Virus record (IMG/VR): IMGVR_UViG_3300017987_000006
Location: 1-64,000 of that record
Origin: a virus
Reading direction: 5' to 3' (one strand)
DNA length: 64,000 bases
A model generated the notes under the pieces. That model was not told the origin of the DNA. It worked only from the letters and a program-made list of their open reading frames with translations, and made no database searches. Positions 11,823 through 60,724 of the stretch are shown piece by piece (positions within the stretch are counted from its first letter, which is position 1; every line of letters starts with the position of its first letter). A program made the position numbers and the translations under genes.

Positions 11823-11832
11823 GAGAGGAAAC

Positions 11833-12027
11833 ATGCCGATTAAGGAGAGGCAGAAATACTTGGTTCGCGTACTCAAGCAGTTCGCAGAACTGTCTGAGGC
11901 GGGGGACCTCAAGCTGTTGAAGATCATCTTCAAGAATAATCGCACCACGGCTTTTGCAGACACGACTCACGGGCCGATAGCTTTTGGATACGTCGAAGAG
12001 TTCGACATGAAGGAACTCGATGATTGA
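11833..12027 (+). CDS. Hypothetical protein
   Basis: AGGAGAGG SD before ATG 11833. Confidence 0.6.
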   Translation: MPIKERQKYLVRVLKQFAELSEAGDLKLLKIIFKNNRTTAFADTTHGPIAFGYVEEFDMKELDD

Positions 12028-12625: not shown

Positions 12626-12656
12626 GTGCGTGCAGAACCGTATGAACCGTACTGAA

Positions 12657-12696
12657 GGGCTGGGAGGCCTCGCACCACCTCCCGGCCCCTCATTTT
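12657..12696 (+). terminator. Probable intrinsic terminator
   Basis: Stem GGGCTGGGAGG / CCTCCCGGCCC (one G-U), then CTCATTTT. Confidence 0.55.
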
Positions 12697-12699
12697 AGC

Positions 12700-12729
12700 T
12701 TGCACCAGATCGTCAACACGCTGTACGAT
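12700..12729 (+). promoter_or_regulatory. Sigma-70-type promoter, near-leaderless transcript
   Basis: TTGCAC-N18-TACGAT with TG extension; ATG 12738 follows without SD. Confidence 0.55.
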
Positions 12730-12737
12730 CTCCTTCC

Positions 12738-12977
12738 ATGACGCTCTCCCTGAACGAGCACACCCTGAAGTTCGAGTGCACACACTGCGGACGTGTCCAC
12801 GAGATCAAGGTGCCGGAGAGCCGTCAGGTCCATAAGGGCGATATCATCACGCCTTACCCGGGCGGAGGAAACTATGGCCGCTGCCACTTCTGCAGACGGC
12901 CTGGGCTGCGCGCCATCGAAGAGCGCGTCACACCAAAGAGAGGGCCGGTAGGATGGAGGAACATTCCAAAGAAGTGA
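12738..12977 (+). CDS. Zinc-ribbon protein
   Basis: CTHC...CHFC. Confidence 0.7.
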   Translation: MTLSLNEHTLKFECTHCGRVHEIKVPESRQVHKGDIITPYPGGGNYGRCHFCRRPGLRAIEERVTPKRGPVGWRNIPKK

Positions 12978-13363
12978 CGATCTACAAAGACGGCGAGTCC
13001 GTAGCTCACTACCACGGAGCACCGCGCATCGTCGAGATGCAGCTCGATGACCTCCCCAAGCTGACATGCTTTGGATTCCCAACCATCGCGTTGGACAGGC
13101 GCATCATCTTCCAGCTGCTCAACCGCCGTCCGTTGATGGACGTGTTCAATGGTGTCGGCATCGAAGTGAAAGAAGAGAAGCAGGACGAGACCAATATCGA
13201 GCGCACCGAGCCTGTATATCTCGTCCACGGCCGTCAGGAAACCTATAGAGGAGAAACCACAATCAACGCTGTGGTCCTGGCGTATGTTCACGGGAAGATC
13301 AAGCCGAGAGAACTGGCCACGAAACTCCCGGAAATTTATAGACGATTCTCTGCTTCCATTTAA
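12953..13363 (+). CDS. Hypothetical protein
   Basis: Coherent ORF; start uncertain (ATG 12953 or GTG 12974). Confidence 0.6.
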   Translation: MEEHSKEVTIYKDGESVAHYHGAPRIVEMQLDDLPKLTCFGFPTIALDRRIIFQLLNRRPLMDVFNGVGIEVKEEKQDETNIERTEPVYLVHGRQETYRGETTINAVVLAYVHGKIKPRELATKLPEIYRRFSASI

Positions 13364-13368
13364 ATGGG

Positions 13369-13398
13369 TTGACAGAGGACATACATCGTATGTATTAA
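13369..13398 (+). promoter_or_regulatory. Sigma-70-type promoter with palindromic operator-like site
   Basis: Perfect TTGACA, N18, TG-TATTAA; inverted repeat ACATAC-atc-GTATGT at 13379-13393. Confidence 0.55.
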
Positions 13399-13405
13399 AA
13401 AGCTC

Positions 13406-13687
13406 ATGAGTGCCAACACACGTGGTGAGATACCGCAGTCGGTGGTGCTTCCGGCGAAGCAGTTCCTTAGTGAGGACGAGCTCGTGGAACTGTGGGAGAT
13501 CCGCGGCCTGAAGTTCAGGGTTGATGAGCTGCACAAGTTCTGCCAAGAGCGTGGGTTGCTGCCACATCTCCGCCGGGACAGCTTTCGGAAGAAGGTTCTC
13601 GGGATGTTGCGGGCCTTCATGGTCAATGGGGAGATTCGTAGAGACCCACGGTTCGTACCACCTCTCAAACCACTGAAAAGGCTATGA
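13406..13687 (+). CDS. Hypothetical protein, possibly DNA-binding
   Basis: Follows promoter; basic helical composition. Confidence 0.55.
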   Translation: MSANTRGEIPQSVVLPAKQFLSEDELVELWEIRGLKFRVDELHKFCQERGLLPHLRRDSFRKKVLGMLRAFMVNGEIRRDPRFVPPLKPLKRL

Positions 13688-14760
13688 CAAAATCCACAAA
13701 GTTCAACAAGACCATGACCGACATCAAGAGCCGCGGGAAGCCCCTGGGAGGAGCCCCCAAGGTTCAAATCCCCCCGCTGGATGCGGAGCCGGTAACTGGG
13801 CCTAATGGCGAGCCTTTGACGATGGAGCAGCAGGCGGCCATGTTGAGGGACCCCACTAACCCGATGAGCCCACACTACAGCCCCCAGGCCGCGGAGATGG
13901 CACAGCAGGGATATATCCCCCAGCAGGCCACCACACCTCCTCAGATGGACCCAGCGGCCCTCAGAGCGGCTCGAGCCGGAGGGAGGCCCCAAGGTACCCC
14001 CCAGGGTCCTTTCGGCGGAATTCTGCCGCCTGAGGCCGCGAGAGACCCCAATTTCGTGCCTGGTGTGGGCTCGATGTACGCCGCCAACCAGCCAGCCGTC
14101 CGGAGGGGACAGCCCGGGGCCCCGAACCTGAGCCAGGAGACCTTGGACGGGATGCAGGCGTTGGCTCAGCTCCAGTCCAAGACGGCTGAAGCGCATGAGA
14201 AGGAGGAGAAGGAGCGGCGGGAGCACCAAGAGAAGGAGGCCGAGGAGAAGGAGGCCGAGCGCCTGGGGCTATCTGACGACCTGCTGGCGCAGCTGCGGGA
14301 AGCTATGGCAGATCTCAACTCGGACGACATCCGCAAGGCCATCGAGAAGCGGATCGAACCGATGGATTTGGTCCAGCTCATCGAGGAGGGCGAGTGCCGC
14401 CAGGACGTGCCCATCGTCCCAGACAAGCTGGTGCCGACTTATCGCACGGTCTCTGGGCACGAGGACCTGAAGATCAAGGAAGAGGCGTTCAAGGTGGAGG
14501 GCATCAACGATGTCTACCTGGTTGACCTGCTCAATCTGATGCAGTTGACGGCGGGGCTGCATGCGATCAACAGACGGCCGCTGCCGAGCCACCTGAACGA
14601 CAAGAAGCGTCTGGATAAGGACAACTTCGAGCGAAAATTCGATATAGTGCTTTCATACCCTATCCAGATGCTAGCTTCGCTCTCGATCAACTTCAGCTGG
14701 TTCGACAGGAGGGTACGCTCCCTGTTCATCGATGTGGAGCCCTTAAAAAATGGATCATGA
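13684..14760 (+). CDS. Pro/Gln-rich protein, candidate tail assembly chaperone (G-type)
   Basis: Low-complexity N-terminus, globular C-terminus ending in A AAA AAT slippery heptamer (PLKNGS). Confidence 0.5.
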   Translation: MTKSTKFNKTMTDIKSRGKPLGGAPKVQIPPLDAEPVTGPNGEPLTMEQQAAMLRDPTNPMSPHYSPQAAEMAQQGYIPQQATTPPQMDPAALRAARAGGRPQGTPQGPFGGILPPEAARDPNFVPGVGSMYAANQPAVRRGQPGAPNLSQETLDGMQALAQLQSKTAEAHEKEEKERREHQEKEAEEKEAERLGLSDDLLAQLREAMADLNSDDIRKAIEKRIEPMDLVQLIEEGECRQDVPIVPDKLVPTYRTVSGHEDLKIKEEAFKVEGINDVYLVDLLNLMQLTAGLHAINRRPLPSHLNDKKRLDKDNFERKFDIVLSYPIQMLASLSINFSWFDRRVRSLFIDVEPLKNGS

Positions 14761-28722: not shown

Positions 28723-28993
28723 AACATCGAAGTACCCGCCCAAGACCGTGGTCAATGTAGCCCAGTGCGAGATCTTCGCCGTGACCTTCGTGGATGGTGA
28801 GAGCATCCCCGACACCCGCCTGGTCGTGAAGCACGGGGACAGCTACCACTTCTTGCACGACGAGAAGACGGACCACTCCCTGCGTCCGCCTGCCGGGTGG
28901 CTGATCAAGGCTCTCCAGGAGAAGCTGGAGGCGTCCGTGCTGGATGGAGAGGAGGACAAGATCGAGGAGCTGCCGATGGAGGCGACGGTATGA
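28712..28993 (+). CDS. Hypothetical protein
   Basis: AAAGGAG SD. Confidence 0.6.
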   Translation: MPNRTSKYPPKTVVNVAQCEIFAVTFVDGESIPDTRLVVKHGDSYHFLHDEKTDHSLRPPAGWLIKALQEKLEASVLDGEEDKIEELPMEATV

Positions 28994-29370
28994 CCGGCAT
29001 CCCCAAGGGTTTGGAGCTTCCCCCTGTCCGACCGCAGAACGATCGCGTGCTCATTTATCTCGAGCCAGAGAGCAATGTGGTCGGATCGGACGTGAAGCTC
29101 TACAAGCCGGACGACGCGAACGCGCACGTCTTTCGTTTGGGGCGTGTGGTTCGCGTCGGCCCGGGGAAGCGAGACCCAGACAGCGGAGAGCGAATCCCGT
29201 GCATGGTCAAGCCCGGAGACAGGGTGCTGTTCATCAAGTTCGTGGCTACTCACACCAAGACGGCGGAGAGCATCCAGTGTACGGTGGGCAAAGACTTCGC
29301 GTTGATCAAGGACTACGACGCCCTGGCCGTAGTGCCGGAGGATTTCGATCTGAGGATGGTACGGCAGTGA
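28990..29370 (+). CDS. groES: GroES/Cpn10-like co-chaperonin
   Basis: VRPQNDRVLI, GRVVRVGPGK, VKPGDRVLF, LIKDYDALAVV follow the Cpn10 pattern. Confidence 0.85.
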   Translation: MTGIPKGLELPPVRPQNDRVLIYLEPESNVVGSDVKLYKPDDANAHVFRLGRVVRVGPGKRDPDSGERIPCMVKPGDRVLFIKFVATHTKTAESIQCTVGKDFALIKDYDALAVVPEDFDLRMVRQ

Positions 29371-30248
29371 CAGCTACCTGGGAGAAGGTGGACGTCTACA
29401 TGTGCTCGCTGTGCGAGTCACCCATCTTCATGCCGAAGGGTCAGAAGAAACTGCCAGATAAGTGCGAGCGTTGCGGTGCGGAGATGACGGAGAAGCCCAA
29501 GACGGGACGGGGAAAGCCGATGGAGCTTGCCGGCGTCACCTATCCGCGCAAGAAGGACGTGGAGGCGCGGGCGAAGCAGATCTTACGGGATACGCCGGTT
29601 CACGCATGTCTCGAAGGGGACGATCGTGCCTTCATGGTGGCCTTGCTCAACCACCACTACCTAGTCAAGGAGAAGATCGGTAGTGGTGTGAAGGACATCT
29701 TTGTTGGCAAGCAGCCCGGCCGGGATGCCAAGAGGTTCCTGCTGCGTCGGACGAACGGCGTGATCGTGGACTTCAGCTACCGCAAGTGTCTGCGGCCCCC
29801 AACGCGCAGGGAGCACTTCGCGGAGGCGTGCCGGGCGGCGGTGCAGGGGCAGGTGGACGCGTTCAAGACCCACGCCTTCCGCCCCCTGCCGGTCAAGGGA
29901 GATCCTACCGCGGATGTCTTCACCTTTGACCCCAACCGCTTTCGTCTGGAGCCCACGAGTAAGGTTCCGTGTGCGTTGACGGGGGAGCTGGTAAGCTGGA
30001 AGGAGTGCCACGTAGATCATGCCCCGCCGAACGAGTTCGCGAAGATTGTGGACGACTACATCAAAGAGCACCAGATCGACATCAACCAGATCCAACTCCT
30101 GGGGGCTGAAGACGGCTTCTCGCGCCGTTGCTTCCAGTACGAGGAGGAGCGGCGTTTCGCTGCGTTCCACAAGGAGCGCGCCGTGTTGCAGATAGTTGCC
30201 ATCGCCCCTCACATGGAGCGATCGTATGCAAGCAGGAGGAAGGGATGA
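29367..30248 (+). CDS. Zn-ribbon + DUF3223 (DCL-like) domain + HNH-like motif protein
   Basis: CSLC...CERC; ALLNHH...EKIGSGV...F.LRRTNG...DFSYRKC; CALTG...HVDH. Confidence 0.7.
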   Translation: MTATWEKVDVYMCSLCESPIFMPKGQKKLPDKCERCGAEMTEKPKTGRGKPMELAGVTYPRKKDVEARAKQILRDTPVHACLEGDDRAFMVALLNHHYLVKEKIGSGVKDIFVGKQPGRDAKRFLLRRTNGVIVDFSYRKCLRPPTRREHFAEACRAAVQGQVDAFKTHAFRPLPVKGDPTADVFTFDPNRFRLEPTSKVPCALTGELVSWKECHVDHAPPNEFAKIVDDYIKEHQIDINQIQLLGAEDGFSRRCFQYEEERRFAAFHKERAVLQIVAIAPHMERSYASRRKG

Positions 30249-35384: not shown

Positions 35385-35948
35385 ATGGGGTTCCCACGGG
35401 ACTGGCTTCCGGATGTCGCGCAAGTGATCGCAGAGGTTCTGCACGAGAACGCTCTGCGGCGCGGCATACCGGAGACCGTTCGACGATCGGAAATCGTTCT
35501 GGAGGGAAGGAATCCGTTGTTGATGTCCTCGACACACACGACCACCATGAAAGATGGGGCAAAGATCCCTACGTGGCGGGGCAAGAAGTTCGAGGGCAGG
35601 GAGTCGCTGAAACAAGCGATCTCGGACCTGATGGATGGCGTAGATGAAGATGACGGTAGAGGTGCTTTTGGGAATCCAGCTGGAAGATTCCGGTACGATG
35701 CTTTCGCCAAAGAATTTGCGGCCATCGGGGCGGGTGTACGCAACGAAGATGGCGTTCAAGGCGTTGTGCAAGATTCTGCACGAGAAATACGGGATTGGAC
35801 TGGACGTGGTGAGTCAGTCGGCCGAGGCCGCATCATCGATGTGCAGTATGATCGCCAACGGGGACATGGACTGGGAAGAGAACAACCTGATTCGAAAGAA
35901 GCGCGAGATGCTTCGCAGGAGGACAAGGAAAAATGCAAGCCTGGATAG
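35385..35948 (+). CDS. Hypothetical protein (start and 3' extent uncertain)
   Basis: MGFPRDWLPDVAQVIAEVL... reads as protein up to about 35650, then overlaps next gene. Confidence 0.4.
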   Translation: MGFPRDWLPDVAQVIAEVLHENALRRGIPETVRRSEIVLEGRNPLLMSSTHTTTMKDGAKIPTWRGKKFEGRESLKQAISDLMDGVDEDDGRGAFGNPAGRFRYDAFAKEFAAIGAGVRNEDGVQGVVQDSAREIRDWTGRGESVGRGRIIDVQYDRQRGHGLGREQPDSKEARDASQEDKEKCKPG

Positions 35949-35967
35949 AGATGATCAAACAAAATAA
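35644..35967 (+). CDS. Hypothetical protein
   Basis: Protein-like composition; basic C-terminus. Confidence 0.5.
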   Translation: MKMTVEVLLGIQLEDSGTMLSPKNLRPSGRVYATKMAFKALCKILHEKYGIGLDVVSQSAEAASSMCSMIANGDMDWEENNLIRKKREMLRRRTRKNASLDRDDQTK

Positions 35968-36598
35968 GGTCACATTCGTCATTGGTGGGCTGATCGTCAT
36001 TCTGGCCATTGGCGGTGTCATCTACGGCATTGCCACGAAGGCCGGGGATGAAGGGTTTCACGCGGCGGCGGACGGGACAGTCCTGAAGTGGGACCGCTCG
36101 GCCCTGCCGCTGACTTGCTTTCACGACACATTCCCCAATGAGGAGCACCAGGCTGCGCTGAAGGAGGCGATCGGGAAGATCTCCAAGGCTGGGATATCGG
36201 CGTTCATGCCGTGCCAGCCTTGGATGGTCTCCGATCCCTTCCCCACAAAGCACGTCAAAAACACGGTCTTGATCAAGGTTGGCGCTCCGCCGGAGCCAGA
36301 ACGAGAAGTGGTGGTCACTTCTCCGTTCGAACCGAAGCACGGGGCGTCCACATTTTTAGCTCATGTCAAGGGAAAAGGGATCTACGGCGCGATCGTTTAT
36401 ATCATGCCAGACCTTGATAAGAAGCTGTACGGTAGGGTCTACCTGCACGAGCTTTTGCACGCCCTGGGCTTGACACACGACCGTGTTCGCGATTCGATTA
36501 TGTATCCGACAGCAGCAGAGAGGGCCACCGACCTGTCCAGTAAGGACACTAAACTACTGCTGAAAACCTACGGAGAGCGGAACGATGAGCCTAGCTGA
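35951..36598 (+). CDS. Membrane-anchored matrixin-like (M10/metzincin) metalloprotease
   Basis: N-terminal TM (FVIGGLIVILAIGGVIYGIA); HELLHALGLTH (HExxHxxGxxH) and Met-turn SIMYP. Confidence 0.88.
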   Translation: MIKQNKVTFVIGGLIVILAIGGVIYGIATKAGDEGFHAAADGTVLKWDRSALPLTCFHDTFPNEEHQAALKEAIGKISKAGISAFMPCQPWMVSDPFPTKHVKNTVLIKVGAPPEPEREVVVTSPFEPKHGASTFLAHVKGKGIYGAIVYIMPDLDKKLYGRVYLHELLHALGLTHDRVRDSIMYPTAAERATDLSSKDTKLLLKTYGERNDEPS

Positions 36599-39361: not shown

Positions 39362-39470
39362 AACTAAAGAGAGGTCGGTCGTCCTCTCTAAACCCGAGGG
39401 GTTTGGCTGATTGCGGTCTGGTCTTTACGTCACAGAGCACTCAAGTACCCACCTGATTAATCATTTTGTA

Positions 39471-39500
39471 GCTAAGAAAAGACAGCCCGGCCGGGCTGCC
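39471..39500 (-). terminator. Intrinsic terminator closing the pentamer array on the - strand
   Basis: - strand reads GGCAGCCC-GGCC-GGGCTGTC-TTTTCTT (8-bp stem with one G-U, then U-tract); no U-tract follows on +. Confidence 0.75.
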
Positions 39501-39502
39501 TC

Positions 39503-40589
39503 AGGATGGCATGGATTGAGAAGGAGTGTCAGAGCGATCGGGTCTGGATCAGATCGTCGAACTGGTGGGGACCGGACCGCGTTGGGTTGTCGCCACGATC
39601 AGGTCTGGCAGGATATGGACTGTCGAGTTGGTTAGATAAGGGCTGTCGCGCCGTGACGGACTGCGCCGTGCGGAGGGGGGACGTCGACTAGGCGCGAGCG
39701 GGAGTGGTCAGGCATGGTTCGTCTGATCGCGGGGGACCGGGCAGGAGAAGGCTTGTCAGATCGAGAGGGATTGGCCTGTTCCAGCTCGTCGCGAAGGCTT
39801 GGCTTATCAGTTAGGCCCGGCCAGGTCTGTCAGCTGCGTGGTGCGTGAGGGCCGGATCGGGCATGTCGAATCGGATGACGACGAGGTGCGGGTGGGCCAG
39901 TCAGCTTGGGTGGGGTTGAGGAGCGACGGCATGGGATGTCGGCCGGGGCGGGCGTGAACTGGAGCGGGTTGTCGGCTTTGCCAGCACCGGCTCGCAACGG
40001 CTCGTAATGAATCGGACCGTCGAAGTGGATGGGCTAGGAGGGGAGAGGGGAGGCTTGTCAGCACGGGGTGAGGTGGATAGGTCAGGAATGTCGAGCAGTC
40101 TCGGCTGGTTTAGGGTTGGCTTGTCAGGCAGGAGCGGTCCGGTGTAGATCGGATTGTCCAGTCGGTTGGAACAGGCAAGGCATGTCGAGCAGGGAAGGCG
40201 CGGCTGATCTTGGCCCGTCGATTAGGATGGGTAGGGATTGGCTTGTCGGAATGGATCGAATGGGCTTGTCTATGCGGACGGGGACCGAGCGGACCAGGAG
40301 AGGTGAGTCGATCTGAAGTGGATGGGCGCGAACCGGAAGGGTCTGTCGAAAGGTTTGGGATGGGCGGGGACAAGACAGGTGCGTCAGAATGAGGGGGCTC
40401 GAGTGAGAGCGAGTGGGTGAGTCGACCCGGCTTGGTACGCGGTGGTCCGGCATGTCAGCTCGAGAGGAACCGGCTTGGTCTGTCGGACTGGTGTGGTGTG
40501 TATGGGACTGTCTCGTCGGGATCGGGTTGGTTTGATTTGGCGAGGTGTGTCAGGAGGGTCTAAGGTGGGTGGGACCGTGTTGGCTTGTA
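39503..40589. ncRNA. Non-CRISPR array of about 33 unique units built from G(G/A)NNN pentamers closed by GTC (candidate guide-RNA array)
   Basis: Hand parse: 27 of 32 delimited units are exactly 5n+3 nt; 141 of 159 pentamers in those units start with G, 93 with GG; no credible ORF; begins about 20 bp past the stop of a Cas7-like gene. Confidence 0.8.
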
Positions 40590-40611
40590 CGGGATAGTCT
40601 CAGTGTCTTGT

Positions 40612-41433
40612 CTAGGCCGCCTTGCCCTTTTTGGGAACCTTCGTCTTGGGAGCCTTCGTCTTGGGCTTGGGCAGCGAGCCCTTCTGGAGCTCCTCGACGG
40701 TGAGGAACTTGACGCGGCCGAAGCCCTGGGACCTCGAGCAGCCGAAGCCGTTATCTTGCGCCAGCTGCATGCAGTAGGTCAAGAACTCCTCGCTCATCCG
40801 CTTATCCTTCGGATCGGCAAACCATATCTCGAACTCGATGTAGGTACCGGGTTCCACGTAGTCGTGAAACTTGATCGTACTGCGCGGCCCCTGGGGGCCG
40901 ATGACGTGCGCCACCGTCTCTTCATGCCCGTCCGGCTCCACCAGCCGCTTCCTGTCCGCTTCCTTGTGTCCCTTGTCGTATAGGTAGACGCGGTCTGGGT
41001 GCTCGCAGCCCCGGATGAAGAATGAGTGCTGTAAGATCTGACGAACGCCGCGGTGTACGTTGGTCAGCCCCAGCACCGTTGCGGTCTCCTTGAAGCCGGC
41101 CTTGAGTTGCCGCGTCTCCAGAAAGATGCCATGTCCTTCCGGTTCGATCTTGTCCGGCTCCGCCTTGAACCCCGTCCAGGACTTGAGCTTCGCCTTCTCG
41201 CTCTCCTCTATGTCGTCATCGGACGACATCTCCTGGACGCGGGCTCTGGCCGCCTCCACGGTCTCGTCCTTGACCAGGCCCTTGCGGTGTCGTGCCTCGA
41301 GCATGGCCAGCTCGGATTCCGGATGTTTTGGCCAGCCGCCGAGCAGCCGGTTGGCCGTGACCATTGTCACCTTGTACTTCGTGTAGATGTTGACGTCGTG
41401 TTCGCGAACTAGTTCCTCAAAAGTCCTCTCCAT
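40612..41433 (-). CDS. Solitary Cas7-group RAMP-like protein
   Basis: KVTMVTANRLLGG (beta1 + G loop), IFLETRQLKAGFKE (cf. IPGSSLKGALR), DYVEPGTYIEFEI, Gly-rich loop GFGCSRSQGFGRV; AAGGAG SD. Confidence 0.8.
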   Translation of the reverse strand: MERTFEELVREHDVNIYTKYKVTMVTANRLLGGWPKHPESELAMLEARHRKGLVKDETVEAARARVQEMSSDDDIEESEKAKLKSWTGFKAEPDKIEPEGHGIFLETRQLKAGFKETATVLGLTNVHRGVRQILQHSFFIRGCEHPDRVYLYDKGHKEADRKRLVEPDGHEETVAHVIGPQGPRSTIKFHDYVEPGTYIEFEIWFADPKDKRMSEEFLTYCMQLAQDNGFGCSRSQGFGRVKFLTVEELQKGSLPKPKTKAPKTKVPKKGKAA

Positions 41434-41467: not shown

Positions 41468-41484
41468 GGGAGCTTAGCGCTCCC
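41468..41484 (-). terminator. Hairpin between upstream gene and Cas7-like gene, weak terminator
   Basis: GGGAGC-GCTAA-GCTCCC followed by only TTTC on - strand. Confidence 0.35.
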
Positions 41485-42154
41485 AAAGAATTGTGAGTTC
41501 GTCGTCCTGTACGTGGATCCATCCGCCAGACGTCTTGTTCTGGTATACTTGCACTACTTGCTGGCACCAGGGCGGCGGCGGGCCGTTCCACATGGACAAG
41601 GCCCCTTCGAGCCTGACAAACTCTCCGGCGTCAGGCTCGAAACATCCCACAGGTAGCGTGACCCGCGGCTTGGGAGTCCTGGGCGTCCCCCAGGTCTTCG
41701 ATTTCGTCTTCGATTCCAGCAGCGCGATGTAGAAGTTCCTCAATGGGATACAAGCCCCTTTCTCGATCAATGTGACCTGTTTCTCTTTCCACTCGTCCTG
41801 CCACAGCTCCTCATCGATCTCGTGCAGCGTCCCATCCCGTCCGGCTTCTACGATCTTCCCCTCGTGTAGGAAAGCGTAGAGGTTTCCTCCTTTGCACCAA
41901 CCGAGGGCGGGGATCAAATCGCGCGGAACCATCTGTCCGATGTCGTCCCACTCCACCAGGTGCATGTAGAACGTTCTGTCCTCTGCACCACTCGCCCAGA
42001 CCTTGCGCCCATTGACGCTGATCTTCACATGACAGAAGTGTCCCAGCTGCTTGACGCGTCCTGAGCGCTTGATGATGCCGATCATGGGCAAATCCGGTTT
42101 GGGGCCTTCAACCCCAAACCAGATCTGCTTGACGTACCAACTGTACTCACTCAC
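41474..42154 (-). CDS. Hypothetical protein (Trp-rich)
   Basis: GTGA overlap; 226 aa coherent ORF. Confidence 0.65.
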   Translation of the reverse strand: MSEYSWYVKQIWFGVEGPKPDLPMIGIIKRSGRVKQLGHFCHVKISVNGRKVWASGAEDRTFYMHLVEWDDIGQMVPRDLIPALGWCKGGNLYAFLHEGKIVEAGRDGTLHEIDEELWQDEWKEKQVTLIEKGACIPLRNFYIALLESKTKSKTWGTPRTPKPRVTLPVGCFEPDAGEFVRLEGALSMWNGPPPPWCQQVVQVYQNKTSGGWIHVQDDELTILWER

Positions 42155-47466: not shown

Positions 47467-48953
47467 TTACAACTCCTCGTTGATGCACTCGTTGAGATCT
47501 TTGTTCCTCCTGAAGCTGAGAACCTTGGGGAAGGTGAGTGCGTTGCTATCCTGCCCCTTGGATATGTAGCTTCGGTCCTGGTATCCCACTTGCAGGACAC
47601 CGATCCACATCCCTTCATCAGCGATGCGCTTGCGTTGGGCGTCCGTCAGGCCGCCGCTCACCTCGCCGATGTAATGCTTCACCCCATCCTTGTCGTACTG
47701 GTACAAACTGATCGATCCGACCCGCTTCATGTTCTTGCCGGTGCCGTAGGCTCCGTTCGTCTTCAACCGCTTGCCGCATACGGCACACTTACCGCTGCTC
47801 GTCTGCTTCTGCAGCGCGCCATGGTCAGGGACATGACATTTCGTGGTGCAGTGCTCGCGCATGCCGTCAGGTTCCCAGATCCCGATGAAGTCGTCCTCCA
47901 GGGCGTTCTTGACCTTCCAGCAGACGTTCGGCCGATCTGGCTGACCAAGGAAGCTGAGATGCTTCTCGCCCAGCGATCCCCAACAGTCGTACACCACCCA
48001 TCCCTCGTACCCGTACTTCCTCATCTCTGAGATCATGTCGTCGTAAGGCTCGGCAGCAATGTCTGGGCCGTGTACGAACTTGCAGAGATGGAGTCCGGTG
48101 TGACCTCCCCACCCATCGACGAGCTCCATCAACCAGTCGAGCCAGAAGCTACAGCTGTGGTCCTTCTCGAGGTTGTCCCCTTCCCAGAAGGGCATACGGA
48201 ACACGTAGGCGTGGACCAGGCCGAGCTTGCGCTGCATCTCAATCGCCCGCTCCGGCAGAGAGTTGGCGATTTGCTGCATCGCCTTGAATTCTTCTTTCGT
48301 CTTTCCTTCGCCGATGTAGAACTCACAGAGCAAGATCGTCTCGGCGGGGAGCAGGGCCTCGAACTCCTCGACCAGGTGCGGGAACTTGTCGTTCTCGACC
48401 TTCATCTTCCCGCGGGATTGGATCCACACAGATCCGTCTCGGTCTTTGGAGACCACGAAGCACATCCCGTTCTTCTTCACGGTCCAGGCCAGCGGGGGAC
48501 CTCCTACACTCCTCCCAGACTTCCGTGATTCGAGCTTCCGCAGCTTCTCCTCCTTGATCGAGTTGACGGGCTTCGAGAAGGCCACGTTGTTGGGCAGCGG
48601 GCCATCGAAAGAGATCTGCTGGGAGCGGGTAACGCCGCCGAGCTCCTCTTCCAACATCGTCGCGAACTTGCCCTTGCTCGGCTTCACAATGATCTCGTAC
48701 CCCGCCTGCGCTTTCTTCTTGACGTCGCGGACAAGCTGCTCAAGCGCGGAACGTTCTGGAGAGATCCAGGCTTTCGTGCCCTTCTTTCCCTTCTCACCAG
48801 GAATGTCCACCGTCTCCTGGATCTTCCCGTCCAACACGCCCCACTGGGTGATGACCTCGTCCCCGTCTACCCATCCAGCCCAGACCTGCGTGTTCTTCTT
48901 GGCCTCCCGCTGCATGCTGCAGTAGGTCTTCTTACTCCTGGGTGTCTTTCTCA
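47467..48953 (-). CDS. ATP-dependent DNA ligase with N-terminal WGR-like domain
   Basis: Motif I VKKNG, III LLCEFY, IV YEGWVV, V WKVK, OB-fold GEVSGGLTD; N-terminal VITQWGVLDGKIQ; AAGGAGG SD before ATG 48953. Confidence 0.85.
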
Positions 48954-49510
48954 TCGTCCTCTTCCTTTTCCATCGGGAGGTACACGTTGCGTCGCTTATC
49001 GCTGTTGTCCTTCTCGGATCGTATGAGCCCGAGCTTTCGTAGTACCCCAATATGTCTGGAGACTGTCTGTGCTGTGGTGAAAACTCCGACCTCGTCCAGC
49101 CCTCGATGAATATCGCGCAACGCTTTTCTACCCTCGCGAATCAGCTCTAGCACCAACAAGACATCTTCTTTTATACGATGGCCGGCCACAACGAACGGCT
49201 GTCTTTGAGCTGTGAATGGGGCGGACTCCATGATGGCATCGGTTAGAACCAAGAACTGTTCTATGTCGTGTAGGCTTTTCGTCTTGATCCAGACGTGGGC
49301 CTGGTCTGTCTTGCCTGGGGTCACGCACAGGTTGAAGCTCTCAGATTGCCGTTTCATAAACTCCTTCACCTGGGCGAATTTGGAGAACCATTCGAACGAA
49401 ACTCCCTTCGGCGCGTTTTCCTTATCCCTCCTCCAAAGCGCGTTGATGTGGTTCCAGTAATTCAGAACCTCGGAGTCGCTAAGGGGCTTGTCAGATCTTC
49501 GCTGAGTCAT
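48932..49510 (-). CDS. Protein with C-terminal winged-helix (MarR/ArsR-like) domain
   Basis: AQTVSRHIGVLRKLGLIRSEKDNSDKRRNVY. Confidence 0.7.
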   Translation of the reverse strand: MTQRRSDKPLSDSEVLNYWNHINALWRRDKENAPKGVSFEWFSKFAQVKEFMKRQSESFNLCVTPGKTDQAHVWIKTKSLHDIEQFLVLTDAIMESAPFTAQRQPFVVAGHRIKEDVLLVLELIREGRKALRDIHRGLDEVGVFTTAQTVSRHIGVLRKLGLIRSEKDNSDKRRNVYLPMEKEEDDEKDTQE

Positions 49511-51223: not shown

Positions 51224-51411
51224 GTTTCCTAGTTGGGGCGCTGAACGCCCCTAGAGGGAACGTTCTCGCCGATGGGCTCTCTAAATACACCAACGTATAA
51301 GAGATCATGTTCTGGGGAGTACGGTAAAGGGACGGGGCTGGGCGAGCGGCCTGTTATCGGAACCGACCGGAAAGCTGGCCCGTCGGCCGCCCGGGTACAG
51401 GCGGTCATTAT
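51224..51411 (+). ncRNA. Candidate structured RNA / long tRNA leader
   Basis: No ORF; several complementary segments (GGGGCG/CGCCCC, CTCGCC/GGCGAG, GCGGCC/GGCCGC, CCGAC/GTCGG). Confidence 0.35.
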
Positions 51412-51482
51412 CGCGGTGAGGGCAAACGGAAAGCCACTGGTTTCATAATCCAGGGAATCGGGTTCGATTCCCGGCACCGCAA
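51412..51482 (+). tRNA. tRNA with CAT anticodon, initiator-like (C1:A72 mismatch), CCA not encoded
   Basis: Acceptor CGCGGTG/CACCGCA, D-arm GGC..GCC, anticodon loop TTCATAA (CAT 51444-51446), T-arm TCGGG-TTCGATT-CCCGG. Confidence 0.85.
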
Positions 51483-51570
51483 TAGATGGATCGATGGGGC
51501 GGGGCTTGTTTTTCTTGACGGCCTAAACGGTGGTGTGAGACTTTACACGTTCTACACCTCCTTGCAGCGG

Positions 51571-52226: not shown

Positions 52227-55200
52227 ATGCCCATCACCAGCGCTCAAGCAGCAGGTTTAATCGGCGGTCAGAACGCCATGTTTGGGAACATGGCGACCTT
52301 CGCGCAGCAAATCAATCCTTTTAATCCACAGCGGGGGATGCCTACATACGTCAACCCGATGGCCGGAACGAACATGGGCCCAATGTCTGCTCCTGGGGCG
52401 GCATCGTTCAATCAGGTGATGGGGGCTATGTCAGGCATCACGAACGCTGCGGTGAGCTACGGCGTTCCGATCATGGCTGGTGCGGGCATGATGATGGGGG
52501 GTCCCCTGGGAGGGATGCTTGATCCATTCACGGGGGCTGGGAGGGCGTTTGGACGTTCGATCGGGTGGCAGCGGGGTGCTGGATTGATGTCCAACTTGGG
52601 AAGAATCCCTGCCGCCGGGCTGGGGGGATTGACGCGGGGGATTGGCGCAGCAGCTATGGGGGCGCTTCCGGCCATGGCTCTGGCGCAGGGGATTCAGTAT
52701 GTGGGCGGGCAAGCCATCAACACGATGCAGTTCCAGAATCAGACTTCCGCTTTTCTGCAGAACGCTTTTCGGTTCAACAATCCCATGAGCAGGACCGGGA
52801 TGGGTTTTTCCCAGACTCAGCAGCAGGGTATTGCCGATATGCTGCGCACGATGGGATCGCGTGACGTGATGACGACGCCCCAGGAGTTGTTGCAGATCAC
52901 CAAGCAGGGAACGCAGATGGGGATGTTCCGCGGCGTTGAGGACGCCCGGGCATTCAAGCGTCGCTTCATCGAGATGAAGAACACGTTGAAGGAGATCGCC
53001 TCGACATTCAACACGACGCTTGGTGAGGCGATGCCATTCCTTAGCGAGGCACGCAGGATGGGTTTTTGGACGGCAAACGACATCACGAAGCACGCCAGGG
53101 ACGTGAGGAGTGTACAGTCTGTGACTGGGATGAGTGCCCAGCAGGTGCAGCAGACGATGGCGATGGGGGCGCAAATGTCCCGCGGCATCGGTGGGACTGG
53201 AGCTCAAGGGGCCAGGATGATGGCTGCGGCCCAGAGGATGACGGGCTCCGCGTTATACGGCGGTGTTATCAACAGCCAACAGTTGGCGGATGCAGGCTTG
53301 GGAACTGGGGAAGAGGGGGCAAGGAATCTTGGACAGCTGCTGGCGGGGGCCTCTGCCCGCTTTGCTCGAAGCAGGGTTGGTCGTTGGGTGTTGGCCGCTT
53401 CTATGAACCGCGAGGGAACTGGTCTTGATCCACGCAGGCTTCAGGAGCTGATGGCTGGTGGCATGTCGGTGAGGGAGATTGGGGGGATGGCGCGGAGAAA
53501 CGTCGCTGGAGGGCGAGCTTATGGATTTGTAGAAAACGAAGAGGATATGAGAGGGGAGTTGGCACAGATGGGTCCGCGCGGGATGATGGGTTTCACTCGC
53601 GGAATCTTGGGTAGGCGGCTTTACGGGGGGACGTCCAGAGATCGACTCATCACACGCAGGATCATCCGCAGATTCATGGGGGGCACGCGCCGCCAGGCCG
53701 ATATGATCGCCAAGATGATGCGGGACATGCCACGCCTCATGGAGATCCAAACCGCGAAGACGGAGACCTCGCTAGACCTACAGCAGCGCCAGCGCGACGA
53801 GGTGATGAACAACGAGTGGGAGCAGATGAAGCGGGGCATCGGGCAGTGGTGGCGTAGAAACATCGATGAGCCCATCGGTGAGGCGACATCGAACGTCAGC
53901 TATTCGATCAGCAAAGCCTTTCAGCGGTTCAACGATAAGCTGTTCGGCACCGGTGGTGGATCTGTACGATTAAGCGATCTTGCTGTACGGGGTCTGGTAC
54001 GGGCGGCCGAAACAGGAAACGTCAAACACCTTGAGGAGGTATTCGGACCAGCAGGGATGATGGAGCGGTTCCAAGCCGGGGAAATGGGAGGAGGCGGTCG
54101 TCGTGGGATATGGGGTGCTTTGTCGGGGGTAGATCAAGGCGCGCTGATGTTCGGTCAGCGGCGCGGTGCCATGCGTTTGGGGATGGGCGGAATGGTGACG
54201 ACGGGTACGGCGGAGGCGTTGGGGTTTGGGACGCCGGAACAAATGCAGGGGGCGATGACTGGTGCTGGGGCCAAGCAGATCCAAAAATTCTTACGTTCTG
54301 CTGAGGCCGTCACTTTGCGTGGTCGCATAGGCGGGACGGGGGAGCTTTCGGAGCAACAAAATCTGCGTTATGCCGGGGATATCCTACGGATGGTGCGCTC
54401 CGGCCGAGCTGGAGAGGCGGCTCGAGGTTTGGTGGAGGGAGGAAGAACGGGTGGTCAAAGACTCGCCAGGCTCATCGCTGCCCAGGGCGGTGCCAGAGGA
54501 GGATTTACTGGAATAGCTCCCGTAGGCGGAAGGGGGGCTGGTGCTGGTGTACAAGCGACGAGGGCACAGATTGAAGAGATGCGCAATGAGGCCATAAAGG
54601 GCCTTCAAGGAGCATTGGCCGGAATTGGGGCTGGGGAGGGTAAGTTGAGCGAGTCTATGGTAACTGCTGCTTTCTCGCCTGGAAAAACGAGGAGAGGTAT
54701 TGAGGAGTTAAGGCAAGATCCGAGAGGACAGCTAGCATTCAATTTACTGGCCAGGGCCAAACAGATCGAAGAAAAAGATCCAGACAAGGCCGCATCGTTG
54801 CGCTCTGAAGCCAGAGATCAAATACGTTTAGTAGCAGAGGACGCGAATGCTCCAAAGGCTTCGAGAGACGTAGCTTTATCTATGCAGGACCCGGCGGACC
54901 CGCGGGCAAAAACAATTAATGAGTGGGGCGCTAAGATTGGCGAGTCCGATATGCTGGGCAACACTCTGTCATATAGGGAGAAGATTAAGGGTAGAAGGGA
55001 GAGGCTCAACAAGGCCTTGGGACCAAAGGGACAAGACCGGCTCAGGCAGATCACCGGAGGATCGGAGACTGAGCTTGGTCGTGTCGTGATGTCCATGACG
55101 GACCCGACACAGGTCGGGTCTGCTCAGAATATATTGGGCGGGACGCGCAAGATGGCCAGGGAGCTATTGAGGGACCCGGAGAAGGCGCGAGAGATCATGG

Positions 55201-55772
55201 GTCTGTTGGAACAGGAAGGAGCTGCGGGGACGGAGTTCGGTGGGTACGTTGAGCAAGCCATCATGATGAGTCAAATGTCGCATAGCCTGGGGTTGAAGAA
55301 GGATATTGGTCCGCGGGCTGGAGTGCGGGCCAGGAAAGCTGCCAGTAAGGGTATTGGGGCCATGCTGAATCGCATTGGACTGCGTGGTAAAGTAGACGCT
55401 GAGGGATTGATCTCCGGCAAGAAGGGTGCACAGGAAAAGCTGGCGGAGATGCTGCGTACTCAGCGCGGTTGGAGTAACGAGGACATCAAGGGCTTTTTGG
55501 AGAGGACCAAGGGCGGGCTGACCGAGGCGGAGTGGGTCAAGCAATCTGAACTTATCATTGCTCGTTCGGGTCCGATGGGATTGAGCCAGACAGTAGCTAA
55601 GGAATCTGGCTTGAAAGAATCTGAGATTGGAAGGATAACCGGGAGGGAGGGGAGCCCACAGTATCGCGGGGTGCAGCTGAAGATAGCAAACGTGCATCTA
55701 GCTAAGTTGAACACGACGATGGAAGCGATAGCCAGGGAGCAAGGCGTGAAAATAAGACGCACCAAGGAGTAG
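52227..55772 (+). CDS. Tape-measure-like tail protein
   Basis: 1181 aa, Gly/Ala/Met/Arg-rich, helical-looking, directly upstream of baseplate-like genes; positional inference. Confidence 0.6.
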   Translation: MPITSAQAAGLIGGQNAMFGNMATFAQQINPFNPQRGMPTYVNPMAGTNMGPMSAPGAASFNQVMGAMSGITNAAVSYGVPIMAGAGMMMGGPLGGMLDPFTGAGRAFGRSIGWQRGAGLMSNLGRIPAAGLGGLTRGIGAAAMGALPAMALAQGIQYVGGQAINTMQFQNQTSAFLQNAFRFNNPMSRTGMGFSQTQQQGIADMLRTMGSRDVMTTPQELLQITKQGTQMGMFRGVEDARAFKRRFIEMKNTLKEIASTFNTTLGEAMPFLSEARRMGFWTANDITKHARDVRSVQSVTGMSAQQVQQTMAMGAQMSRGIGGTGAQGARMMAAAQRMTGSALYGGVINSQQLADAGLGTGEEGARNLGQLLAGASARFARSRVGRWVLAASMNREGTGLDPRRLQELMAGGMSVREIGGMARRNVAGGRAYGFVENEEDMRGELAQMGPRGMMGFTRGILGRRLYGGTSRDRLITRRIIRRFMGGTRRQADMIAKMMRDMPRLMEIQTAKTETSLDLQQRQRDEVMNNEWEQMKRGIGQWWRRNIDEPIGEATSNVSYSISKAFQRFNDKLFGTGGGSVRLSDLAVRGLVRAAETGNVKHLEEVFGPAGMMERFQAGEMGGGGRRGIWGALSGVDQGALMFGQRRGAMRLGMGGMVTTGTAEALGFGTPEQMQGAMTGAGAKQIQKFLRSAEAVTLRGRIGGTGELSEQQNLRYAGDILRMVRSGRAGEAARGLVEGGRTGGQRLARLIAAQGGARGGFTGIAPVGGRGAGAGVQATRAQIEEMRNEAIKGLQGALAGIGAGEGKLSESMVTAAFSPGKTRRGIEELRQDPRGQLAFNLLARAKQIEEKDPDKAASLRSEARDQIRLVAEDANAPKASRDVALSMQDPADPRAKTINEWGAKIGESDMLGNTLSYREKIKGRRERLNKALGPKGQDRLRQITGGSETELGRVVMSMTDPTQVGSAQNILGGTRKMARELLRDPEKAREIMGLLEQEGAAGTEFGGYVEQAIMMSQMSHSLGLKKDIGPRAGVRARKAASKGIGAMLNRIGLRGKVDAEGLISGKKGAQEKLAEMLRTQRGWSNEDIKGFLERTKGGLTEAEWVKQSELIIARSGPMGLSQTVAKESGLKESEIGRITGREGSPQYRGVQLKIANVHLAKLNTTMEAIAREQGVKIRRTKE

Positions 55773-57469: not shown

Positions 57470-60400
57470 ATGGCGCAGGCAGCCCATCTCGATCTGAGGC
57501 TGTTCCTAGAGGGCGTGGAAGTCCCGGTGATCTCCGCGTCTATCCAGATAGCAGCCAATGCCCCCGCCTCGGCGTCTATCCAGGTCATTGCCACGGATAA
57601 GATCTTAGATCTGCTTCCACGTACCGTAGTACATCTGTTCTTCTACGACTACATCGGTGCTGGCCATGTAGCGATAGATCAGAAACGCGCACAGCTGTCG
57701 CAGATATCCTTTCAGGACTGGATCAATGAGAAGTACAAGCTGCTCTTTATGGGCGAGCTGGTGACGATCAAGTTCCAGAAGTCTCACGACCAGCGCGCAG
57801 TGATCTTGGAGTGCGCAGATTTCTCGAACTACTGGGACACGACGTTCCAGTACAACTTCGGCGGCAGCCTGTTTGCTGGGAGGCGGAAGGCAGCCTTCAT
57901 CGGAGCCAACTCGAACTTCTTCACCAGCATTCTTGGACATGGCGTTGGAACGGTCTCCAACCTTCTCAACGGGAAGTCTGTCAACTACCCGAACCTGAAG
58001 GGTCTGCTGGCGGGTGTGGTACGGATGTTGGAGGCTATCGGCGGGAGCTACTATGGAACTAATGTGTTCCGCGGGTGCAACGACTTCACGTCCATCGCCG
58101 AGCTCCGTTTGAAAATCTTGCAACAGATCACTGCGGCAGAGGCCGACACCAGCACATCACGCCTTTTCGCACGCAAGGCGTTTAACATGTGGATGAATCG
58201 GGCAACCCAGGGATTGGGTAAGCTGATATCATTCCGTGGCCTGGTGAAGACGTGTTTCAAGTTCATCTTCCACGAGGTGTACCCGTGCCCCGTAGCCAAG
58301 TACGTCCCTTCCAGTTCTGAGACGGTTAGAAGGCGTAGATATCTGAGCCCGCCAGAGGTGATCGTAAAGGGTGCCAACGATATCATCGAGAGGATAGACA
58401 GGACGAACAACATCTTGTCACGCTTTAGTTCGACAGCTCCGTTCGGGGAGCAGGTGGAGGTTGCCAAGGCATATCACACGTCGCACGAGAACTTGTACAA
58501 GGAGTTCAAGACATTTTACGCTTCTGCTGGAGCGGGGATAAGCGGGCCGACCACAAAGCGCATCGCTCAAGATCTGTCGAACGCGTTTGGTCCGCTGCGC
58601 CTCACGCACAAGATCATAAGGAGCGGAGACTTTCTTCAGGTCTTGAACGCCAAGCACTCCGAGCTGCAGCGGCACTACAACAGCGCCAAATCCGCCCTGC
58701 GTCGTCTAGTCAATCAGCGGCACCGAGTTACAGAGACACGTGTACGGGAGCACCAGGCCCGCGTAAACAACCAGATCTTCCGTCCGGACATCTGGTACTC
58801 CGCGCCGCCGCGTTGCAACGTGCTGTTCCCAGATCTGTACGATTCGTTCTCTTGGGCCAGGCAGTACCTCAGAGAGGTCAGTCGGTTGGAATTACAGACG
58901 CACAATGAGATCTTGGGGAACGATGCACTGTTCAATGGGCGCTATTATGCCCCGAACGTGGAGGACGTTCGGCGTGGGACAAAGCTCTCGAGCCGGCGTT
59001 TCGCACGGACGATCATGGATCACGAGCTATTCACAGGCATAATCCCTATGTTCGAGAGCATGACGGAGGCCAACCTCTTCGCGATGCGATCTAGTGCGGT
59101 GCAGAAGCAGGGATCTCCAGTGCCCTATGCGCAGCGCGCCGTCAACTTTCAGTATTTCAAGTACAAGTTTGAGTCACGCATGATGTCTGCGTCAGGCCGT
59201 TTCAACCCGATGTTCGTGGCCGGGTTTCCTGCGTTGATCATCGATCGACCAATGACTGAAGAGAACCTGCAAATCTCGTCCCTGCCTGTAGGAGATCAGA
59301 TCAGAGCATTGAATATCACGGCTGAGGAAGAGCCGACGAGATCAGATCTACTGCGGAGTCTTGTCGGCCCACAATATCTCGGGGTGCCGGCTTCTCTTTC
59401 GCACAATGTTTCTCAAGGAGGGGGGCGAACCGACTACCAGTTCATTCACGCTAGGGTACATCGGGAAAGCACAGAGTTTCTGGGGGTAGATCAAGTGGAG
59501 TGGTACAAGGTGGTCGGGACGCGGGACAAAAAGAAGGTCGTTGCCTATCCGATCACATTTCCGCCAAGGCGCGGCCAGCTCGGGCCCAGTGGGGGTACAA
59601 TCTCCAGGGTTGTCGATGTGACGAGCAGCAAGTCGGGGAAGACGTTGCCGGTGCTGGGGACCAACATCAAGGCGCGGGTGGGGACTGATATCCCGCCGTT
59701 TCTTATCAAGGAGATTACAACACAGATCAAGCGATCTATTCCAGCATATGCGAACTCGCCATTCTTCAAGCAACTTATCGGGCTAGACGATTTTTTGGAG
59801 GATTCGTCCCTGCGCCTGGGGGCATTCGAGGTGCATGAGTCTGTCCCATACAGGAAGAAGCAAAATGCCGATCTTCCTATCGAGGAGGCGATCAGACCGC
59901 CATGGATTTGGGATGGGTGGGCCGTACCCAAAATCACCGAGACCTACGATCAGCTGTTCGGCACGGGTGCCATCACAGACATTGATGGGTACGGGATCTT
60001 GGCGGATGCGAGTGGATCATCTAGCAGGACGCAATACCTCACAGTTGAGGAGCGTCTTGCGGCCGAGCAGCAAAACCGAGCTGCTAGCTCAGGCTCGACT
60101 AGGCGCTCGCCGGCAGCGGGCAGGAGCGAGCGGGATGTGGAGATCACAAGGGCTTCGAGGTATCAGGCCGCCCTTCTCCTGCTGGAGACGGAGAAGACCA
60201 TCGAGAACTCGATCGACTTCCTGGTCAGGTCCTACAGCTTTGTCAAGGTCAACAACATGGACGTGGGGGAGTTCCTCAAGGCTTACAACTGGCGTCCGGT
60301 GGCGACGATGGTGGACATCCTCGGCGGGGCAGATCTAAGCATCAAGCAGACCGAAGTCAAGGCCACGAAGATGGTCAGGAGGAAGTACGTCAAGCGGAAG

Positions 60401-60724
60401 GGGCGTACCGTGGTGTACAGGGATGCAAATGGGGCGATCACTGATACCGCCGAGGAGTATCCGGTGTATGGCACGAGATACGTTGAGAAGCCCATCAAGC
60501 GGATCGGATATGTTGTTGACGGGACGGAGGGGTTTCACAGCAGGGCTTTTGGGGATGTGGAAGATCTATTCGGGTTGGTGAGCCCTACCGTCACACGTGT
60601 TCTGGGCTTATCGAGTAACTCGAGCAGAAAGATCGCCGCCAGGATGGATGTGAGGAAGCGGCGTCGTGCGGTCGTCAAGACCTATGTCGCTGAATTGACG
60701 GGGTCTAAGGGACTCGTGGGGTGA
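57470..60724 (+). CDS. Baseplate hub-like protein (T4 gp27/VgrG-like fold inferred)
   Basis: LRLFLEGVEVPVISASIQ...LLFMGEL...VILECADF N-terminus and SASGRFNPMFVAGFPALII typical of hub proteins; position. Confidence 0.6.
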   Translation: MAQAAHLDLRLFLEGVEVPVISASIQIAANAPASASIQVIATDKILDLLPRTVVHLFFYDYIGAGHVAIDQKRAQLSQISFQDWINEKYKLLFMGELVTIKFQKSHDQRAVILECADFSNYWDTTFQYNFGGSLFAGRRKAAFIGANSNFFTSILGHGVGTVSNLLNGKSVNYPNLKGLLAGVVRMLEAIGGSYYGTNVFRGCNDFTSIAELRLKILQQITAAEADTSTSRLFARKAFNMWMNRATQGLGKLISFRGLVKTCFKFIFHEVYPCPVAKYVPSSSETVRRRRYLSPPEVIVKGANDIIERIDRTNNILSRFSSTAPFGEQVEVAKAYHTSHENLYKEFKTFYASAGAGISGPTTKRIAQDLSNAFGPLRLTHKIIRSGDFLQVLNAKHSELQRHYNSAKSALRRLVNQRHRVTETRVREHQARVNNQIFRPDIWYSAPPRCNVLFPDLYDSFSWARQYLREVSRLELQTHNEILGNDALFNGRYYAPNVEDVRRGTKLSSRRFARTIMDHELFTGIIPMFESMTEANLFAMRSSAVQKQGSPVPYAQRAVNFQYFKYKFESRMMSASGRFNPMFVAGFPALIIDRPMTEENLQISSLPVGDQIRALNITAEEEPTRSDLLRSLVGPQYLGVPASLSHNVSQGGGRTDYQFIHARVHRESTEFLGVDQVEWYKVVGTRDKKKVVAYPITFPPRRGQLGPSGGTISRVVDVTSSKSGKTLPVLGTNIKARVGTDIPPFLIKEITTQIKRSIPAYANSPFFKQLIGLDDFLEDSSLRLGAFEVHESVPYRKKQNADLPIEEAIRPPWIWDGWAVPKITETYDQLFGTGAITDIDGYGILADASGSSSRTQYLTVEERLAAEQQNRAASSGSTRRSPAAGRSERDVEITRASRYQAALLLLETEKTIENSIDFLVRSYSFVKVNNMDVGEFLKAYNWRPVATMVDILGGADLSIKQTEVKATKMVRRKYVKRKGRTVVYRDANGAITDTAEEYPVYGTRYVEKPIKRIGYVVDGTEGFHSRAFGDVEDLFGLVSPTVTRVLGLSSNSSRKIAARMDVRKRRRAVVKTYVAELTGSKGLVG

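Follow-up and report, generated by a model that had tools for sequence, protein, structure and literature searches.

The protein encoded at positions 40612 to 41433 of the phage DNA considered here, together with the 1.1-kb guide array that adjoins its gene, very probably makes up a minimal VIPR-type system, i.e., one consisting of a divergent Vipr RAMP and its array, lacking any accessory gene. The DNA analysed, here termed the window, is a 64,000-nt stretch of a phage genome that is complete (178 kb, direct terminal repeats or DTR, CheckV 100%). The locus is a divergent example of a kind of system published in 2026, and is neither an orphan type III or type IV Cas7 nor a new category of system.

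VIPR was first described in 2026, and it is proposed as ancestral to the RAMP effectors of CRISPR. According to two preprints (bioRxiv 10.64898/2026.04.26.720920,.720927), a small phage-encoded RAMP, Vipr, is combined with vrRNAs made of tandem GGY/NN pentamers, with one protomer per pentamer, with the variable letters pairing with double-stranded DNA while one base is skipped, and with transcriptional silencing as the outcome. The systems often include an accessory vap gene and fall into seven types, with variation known both in the consensus and in the layout of the array; the type II system of phage SUSP1 comprises Vipr, vap1 and four vrRNAs. The methods and the legends to figs S17-S18 of the first VIPR paper describe in addition ‘staggered’ arrays, that is, abutting vrRNAs without long tails, and also stand-alone vipr genes. 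A further preprint (bioRxiv 10.64898/2026.10.21.760802) gives 21 clusters of divergent VIPR arrays with the non-canonical motifs GAC/NN, CAC/NN, WGT/NN and TGH/NN. Departure from GGY, as based on those clusters, is thus already documented, and a mismatch of consensus is no bar to VIPR membership.

The features with which we are concerned are the following:

40612..41433, minus strand: vipr-like gene, encoding a predicted single-RRM RAMP of 273 aa (ORF, family alignments, AF2 model, Cas7 fold matches, profile-profile match)
39502..40611, minus strand as the likelier RNA strand: pentamer-phased non-coding array, putatively a guide (vrRNA) array (motif spacing, period-5 power, lattice)
39471..39501, minus strand: GC-rich hairpin (palindrome 39480-39501) followed by TTTTCTT, terminator-like, at the far end of the array, dG -14.4 (custom hairpin and U-tract scan)
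39368..39389, minus strand: second hairpin, the U-rich tail of which is weak, located between the array and the point (39361) at which the converging plus-strand operon ends

The vipr-like gene and the fold of its product

The open reading frame at 40612-41433, as found in the ORF list and translation of the window, starts with ATG and encodes 273 aa on the minus strand. The motifs from which the initial annotation recognised a Cas7-group RAMP, i.e., YKVTMVTANRLLGGWPK, GIFLETRQLKAGFKE, HDYVEPGTYIEFEIWF and NGFGCSRSQGFGRVKF, along with a Lys/Pro-rich tail, are all found in this translation. Part of that tail is coded by a 15-nt tandem repeat (40631-40665).

Curated libraries (Pfam, PHROGs and NCBIfam) supply only sub-threshold RAMP matches to the product of this gene, and supply nothing for its neighbours. 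Cas6_C thus is matched at E 0.04, which is below threshold, and the TIGRFAMs for Csm3, Csx7, Cas6 and Csm4 at E 0.01-0.1, with scores of 15 bits against cut-offs of 55-108; PF03787 goes undetected. The PADLOC models for Csm3 and for typeIV_Cas7 match at E 1e-5 and E 0.014, respectively. The matches to Cas6_C, to the TIGRFAMs and to PADLOC Csm3 all fall on the C-terminal third of the protein, the Gly-rich loop included. The protein belongs, at the same time, to a sizeable family. Alignment with close homologs (alignment A1) holds 19 metagenomic sequences at 34-67% identity, and a profile search of 1.8 billion representatives recovers 1,506 clusters at E<=1e-3, with 904 at E<=1e-10. The A1 profile, when compared with the PDB, matches Csm3 chains at E 1e-5. 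The resemblance of this protein to RAMPs exceeds chance.

An AlphaFold2 model built on A1 (pLDDT 84, pTM 0.75) consists of a single RRM with three helices inserted after strand 1 (residues 38-83), a thumb formed by a beta-hairpin (residues 169-193) the QGPRS tip of which is invariant, and a Gly-rich loop, or G-loop (residues 229-240). The helical insertion after beta-1, the thumb hairpin and the G-loop are the same modules as are described in the VIPR papers. Foldseek places Csm3 and type VII Cas7 at the top of its matches to this model, at E of about 1e-6. An all-against-representatives structural search using VIA-align yields Csm3, at Z 13.8 with 164 aligned residues, as the closest of the solved structures, followed by Cmr4 (12.7), Csf2 of type IV (12.0) and type VII Cas7 (11.9), with gRAMP domains at Z 10.6-11.6 and Cas5 and Cas6 lower. 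The protein is, as modelled, a Cas7-like single-RRM protein; assignment to the Cas7-group RAMPs, which had been made from motifs, thus is borne out by the predicted fold, the top structural matches to which are RAMPs.

Conservation across the family is informative as to likely activity. In the broad family (alignment A2, 143 sequences), positions that are at least 90% conserved are, besides the start Met, nearly all Gly, Pro, Phe, Arg or Ser, and none is Asp, Glu or His. Nor is there, in the close family (A1), an invariant Asp or Glu before residue 116. A catalytic Asp that is conserved in the loop following beta-1 is a hallmark of Csm3 and Cmr4, and this residue, as judged from conservation alone, has no counterpart in the vipr-like family. 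The absence of conserved Asp, Glu or His from the broad family favours a binding role for these proteins and disfavours a conserved nuclease site.

The relationship to Vipr itself is a distant one. Our reference was the genome of Escherichia phage SUSP1, the 195-aa protein P0165 of which is the ‘SUSP1 Vipr protein’ of the PDB sequence list (36pp), and homologs of that protein were gathered into a SUSP1 clade profile (alignment A3). Alignment of A2 with A3 by hhalign gives 96.1% and E 3.5e-9 locally and, in a global alignment of 184 columns that covers SUSP1 Vipr from end to end, 96.2% and E 1.5e-9. When vipr-like family profiles are run as HMMs against the SUSP1 genome nothing is found, and comparison of the narrow family profile with single SUSP1 proteins likewise is null; only the broad profile-profile comparison links the two. 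This failure of HMM-to-sequence searches to bridge the vipr-like family and SUSP1 Vipr indicates that the families are distant. On profile evidence, then, the product of 40612-41433 is classed as a divergent Vipr-family RAMP, a distant relative of SUSP1 Vipr, and to describe its family as closer to Vipr than to Csm3 is to rely on the array rather than on protein scores. In the alignment, the counterparts of the guanine-contacting SUSP1 residues D177 and W178 are C232 and S233, while that of R179 is a nearly invariant R234.

A pentamer-phased array and its recurrence beside homologs

Directly 3' of the vipr-like gene, between it and the end (39361) of the converging plus-strand operon, is a 1.1-kb stretch (39502-40611) that has no long ORF or coding signal, the first GACA of which overlaps the TAG stop codon of the gene. 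The word TGTC[AG] occurs here at 17 per kb, versus a genome mean of 1.7, and always in one orientation. Autocorrelation of G on the plus strand is 0.256 at lag 5, 0.188 at lag 10 and 0.09 at lag 15. Period-5 power reaches 2.74 locally, where the genome background is 1.04+-0.17 (z about 10), and this is the maximum for the 178-kb genome. As a positive control, the same period-5 detector recovers also the vrRNA arrays of SUSP1. A protein-coding reading of the stretch was rejected, as its period-3 power lies below the coding background, and a CRISPR-array reading was rejected as well, long exact repeats being absent. A search of the array against Rfam, at a permissive threshold, gave neither a hammerhead nor any other family.

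When positions are anchored on TGTC, G is found at -24, -19, -14, -9 and -4, and then again at +9, +14, +19, +24 and +29. On the plus strand the grammar accordingly reads as (G-R-N-N-N)k followed by G-T-C-R-R and another three bases, after which comes the next run; on the gene-sense, minus strand it is (NNN-YC)k with GAC punctuation. Within a pentamer, position 1 is G in about 90% of instances, position 2 is G or A (about 60-70 and 30%), and position 3 has no preference for a pyrimidine. The array in this manner is divided into about 27 units of 3-8 pentamers, with YGTC between them, and these units are mostly of length 5k+3. That length is seen in 21/27 units delimited by YGTC anchors (p 2e-10), a count for which the anchor filter partly presupposes the lattice, and in 11/22 of unfiltered TGTC spacings (p 0.002).

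Comparable arrays are found beside homologs at about 10 independent loci, i.e., downstream of the homolog in L005, L010, L011, L012, L009, L003/L008, L018, L019 and L021, and upstream of it in L020. Across loci these arrays hold 27 to about 60 units. Those loci for which more can be said are as follows:

L005, homolog at 65% identity: array of about 55 motif copies over 2.8 kb, with the 5k+3 rule looser (21/60)
L011, homolog at 54% identity: array downstream, 5k+3 in 16/23
L010, homolog at 34% identity: array downstream, 5k+3 in 24/40
L003/L008: a shorter array downstream of the homolog
L012, i.e., Microcystis phage Mae-JY09, homolog at 31% identity: cultured phage with complete genome, array downstream
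L018, L019 and L021, more distant family members: arrays downstream

Members of the clade of the vipr-like gene occur in many phages, ranging from one of Microcystis to uncultured ones of 178 kb. In L021 the array is a 1.6-kb C-lattice (3049-4661) that is punctuated not by GAC but by a CCTGGCGGC-like word recurring every 33-45 nt. As this punctuation word differs, punctuation varies between clades while the 5-nt phase is kept. No 9-mers or other words are common to the arrays of different phages; from one phage to another the free letters thus are hypervariable, as would be expected of guides.

No protein-coding neighbour, nuclease or helicase included, is conserved beside the vipr-like homologs. 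Given that arrays are present at homolog loci, the conserved unit consequently is the gene plus its array. The initial annotation had raised the possibility that the upstream ORF at 41474-42154 is a partner, which is not upheld, since this ORF is not conserved next to homologs. Its only homolog is in L003, 7.7 kb from the vipr-like gene, and it has no family match and no atlas match. As a candidate vap partner it was rejected as not syntenic with homologs, the atlas being uninformative.

Two further observations concern the loci of homologs. About 5 kb from the homolog in L005 is a gene (4811-5185, minus strand) for an Acb2/Tad1 hairpin domain, with NUDIX and phosphoribosyltransferase genes nearby. 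Acb2/Tad1 proteins are sponges for cyclic-nucleotide defence signals. In L001 (ENA contig k141_763875) the homolog and its flanks are present twice, at about 10000-14600, the two copies forming a perfect inverted repeat centred near 12,300. The duplication, which is missing from the JGI contig of the same phage (L002), resembles a palindromic artefact of assembly.

Comparison with SUSP1 places these features in context. Both systems are phage-encoded, with a single small RAMP possessing an RRM core, helical bundle, thumb and G-loop, and both have a tandem, 5-nt-phased non-coding array beside that gene, with neither cas genes nor a CRISPR array. The proteins differ, however, in that the one considered here (273 aa versus 195 aa) bears the Lys/Pro tail, and in that its helical insertion is larger and its thumb tip longer. 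The arrays differ as well. The pentamers here depart from the canonical consensus of GGY/NN (YNNGG), with GR-NNN, or NNN-YC on the other strand, leaving three letters free. Nor do they follow the canonical vrRNA, in which 9-16 repeats precede a conserved, structured 3' tail of roughly 40 nt, as units here consist of 3-8 pentamers that abut via an 8-nt GTC/GAC punctuation. There are furthermore four vrRNAs in SUSP1 versus the 27 to about 60 units per array of the vipr-like clade, and vap1 in SUSP1 versus no vap gene and no conserved neighbour here. The non-canonical and ‘staggered’ VIPR arrays are similar to the present case in that divergent Vipr-like folds are found next to period-5 arrays with non-GGY fixed letters; their motifs, as reported, consist of three fixed and two variable letters, rather than the two fixed and three free letters seen here.

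Probable strand of the array RNA

In SUSP1 the G-lattice is on the strand of the gene. Here it is on the other strand, and it is instead the C-lattice that is gene-sense, as it is also in each of the relatives examined. From the direction of the gene, one would have expected the fixed letters of the array on the other strand. Because the C-lattice is gene-sense in every locus, the array RNA probably is C-rich and co-transcribed with the gene, as (NNN-YC)k. We hold this polarity, which is read from sequence comparison, to be likely though well short of assured.

Gene order points in the same direction. In Mae-JY09, 63/66 genes are on the plus strand, with the vipr-like gene the last of a long operon, and in L021 all genes (13/13) run in one direction; in L005 and L003/L008 the array sits between co-directional genes. 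The array sets in at the stop codon of the vipr-like gene, from which no gene-sense terminator separates it. A gene-sense hairpin plus U-tract is found, instead, at the distal end of the array, both here (39471-39501) and in L011. The hairpin at 39471-39501 is unlisted by a generic scanner, though, and terminator-like counts are at chance level in this region as well as in all of the loci and regions scanned.

Promoters offer no additional guidance, as a sigma-70 promoter scan found none. The phage itself encodes what looks like a sigma factor, a 449-aa ORF (8461-9810, plus strand) with a sigma-70 region 4 domain (E 1.7e-17), so phage promoters may depart from the host consensus. With no promoters found and with terminator counts at chance, polarity is not settled by scans of this type.

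An unlikely, albeit not negligible, alternative is that of the same VIPR-type system with the G-rich strand (GR-NNN) as guide, in which case transcription would converge on the gene and prolong, at its 3' end, the plus-strand operon that ends at 39361. Fixed letters are G-rich in all characterised vrRNAs, and the alternative consensuses given in the first VIPR paper, NNNGG, YNNNG and NNNNG, all contain G. In the window and in L010, furthermore, the array lies between converging genes, such that read-through from the opposite operon could yield a G-rich RNA; at the gene-array junction of L005 there is a weak antisense terminator-like hairpin; and a hairpin plus T-runs is found within the Lys-tail coding region both in the window and in L011. 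In L005, L003/L008, L021 and Mae-JY09, however, the flanking genes are co-directional, and an antisense RNA there would need its own promoter against the direction of flow. Running counter to a G-rich guide too are the lack of a gene-sense terminator between gene and array, the non-conservation of the guanine-contacting residues of SUSP1 Vipr (D177, W178), and the non-G pentamers that are known from divergent VIPR arrays according to bioRxiv 10.64898/2026.10.21.760802.

Should the C-rich strand indeed be the guide, then the recognition chemistry of this family would be broader than has been shown so far, and a 2-of-5 versus a 3-of-5 coding rule would be directly testable using one small construct. 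It is possible, if tentatively so, that guide chemistry in this clade departs from that of published VIPR, with C-rich, co-transcribed (NNN-YC)k guides, GAC punctuation, three free letters per pentamer that possibly are read as whole triplets, and tens of very short guides in each array.

Function, alternatives and the surrounding genome

The vipr-like RAMP and its adjoining 1.1-kb guide array would, under the explanation that we prefer, operate as a minimal VIPR-type system without an accessory gene. By homology with characterised VIPR, one protomer would be bound per pentamer, with the fixed letters held and the variable letters exposed, and the resulting filament would pair non-contiguously with double-stranded DNA, thereby silencing without cutting. 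The silenced target, by the same homology, would probably lie in the host or in some competing mobile element. Peculiar to this clade would be the three rather than two variable letters per pentamer, as well as short, abutting units of 3-8 pentamers for which the 8-nt GTC/GAC punctuation replaces a long 3' tail. The probable mode of action, again by homology, is that of a repressing, RNA-guided, DNA-binding filament. This is in keeping with the suggestion, made from the gene's sequence in the first place, of an RNA-binding filament protein that binds or represses rather than cleaves, a suggestion to which homology with Vipr, the want of conserved acidic or His residues, and the absence of a conserved nuclease or helicase neighbour lend support.

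Searches for targets were negative. Under six pairing rules, units match their own genome or related loci no better than do shuffled guides. Three exact 18-mer scans of a viral contig collection gave 0, 3 and 0 matches, and the three matches were rejected as targets, being to unrelated contigs that no other guide matches, that is, at chance level. As each unit specifies only 8-18 letters, these tests are low-powered. A reading of the unit triplets as codons was rejected too, there being no recognisable motifs, along with stops in both orientations.

These same results bear on a second alternative, which is that the protein coats a long array transcript as a filament that has no guide function, e.g., as a scaffold, a condensate, a sponge for a host factor or a regulator of genes of the phage itself. 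Units with 8-18 specified bases would have poor specificity under the published 2-of-5 code, no targets were found, and the array is large, both here (1.1 kb) and in L005 (2.8 kb). We nonetheless consider such a coat to be improbable, since the letters between the fixed positions are hypervariable among related phages, which fits guides rather than a scaffold, since a homolog of the protein has been shown to bind DNA under the guidance of RNA, and since the target searches had little power.

Most improbable is that the gene is an orphan or degenerate type III or type IV Cas7, one that interferes with host CRISPR complexes or is the remnant of a lost operon, with the repeats unrelated to it, for while its best solved-structure matches and all of its weak family matches are to Csm3, Csm4 and Csf2, the family scores are far under their cut-offs (15.5 bits versus 90 for TIGR02582), no partner cas genes or CRISPR array are present, the repeats follow a 5-nt register whereas that of Cas7 is 6-nt, about 10 loci have the gene together with an array as a conserved unit, the alignment to Vipr is whole-length, and the N-terminal region is without a conserved acidic residue.

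With type III Cas7 (Csm3/Cmr4), the G-rich loop and C-terminal strands are common at the level of sequence; absent here are Cas10, Cas5, Cas11 and a CRISPR array. Similarity to type IV Cas7 (Csf2) consists of the fold match at Z 12.0 and the PADLOC match at E 0.014, in a genome without a CRISPR array. HRAMP modules, which are found on the chromosomes of haloarchaea, are CRISPR-less RAMPs located away from CRISPR arrays and Cas10, and they pair Cas7-like with Cas5-like genes. The present locus differs from these in that its RAMP stands alone, is encoded by a phage and is accompanied by a pentamer array. For 40612-41433 we advise annotation as vipr-like, not as an orphan cas7 or csm3. The locus adds to VIPR a well-delimited example that is in a complete phage genome, is from a divergent clade and has no accessory gene, and the grammar of its array departs from the characterised type, in that two letters are fixed and three are free, punctuation follows the 5k+3 rule, and units are short and numerous.

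The absence of other cas genes, as initially claimed for the window, holds for the whole genome, over the 178 kb of which no Cas1, Cas10, further Cas6, Pfam RAMP, second RAMP or CRISPR array was found. These same searches likewise show no type III or type IV operon in the complete genome that might explain the gene. The 30 bases with which the genome opens are repeated at 178136; the direct repeat thereby formed at the termini is of about 123 bp (window 1-123), which fits the DTR class.

At the sequence level this phage is highly novel, as very large ORFs are without a Pfam match, i.e., those at 52227-55772, 57470-60724 and 47467-49050 (1181, 1084 and 527 aa), each with zero matches. Among ORFs that do have matches, that at 35933-36598 (plus strand, 221 aa) combines an N-terminal hydrophobic segment with a C-terminal, matrixin-type (M10) zinc-peptidase motif (Pfam E 1.6e-7), and that at 28944-30248 (plus strand, 434 aa) has a DUF3223 domain (E 2e-14). 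The sole tRNA of the window is a tRNA-Met (CAT), located at 51411-51483 on the plus strand.
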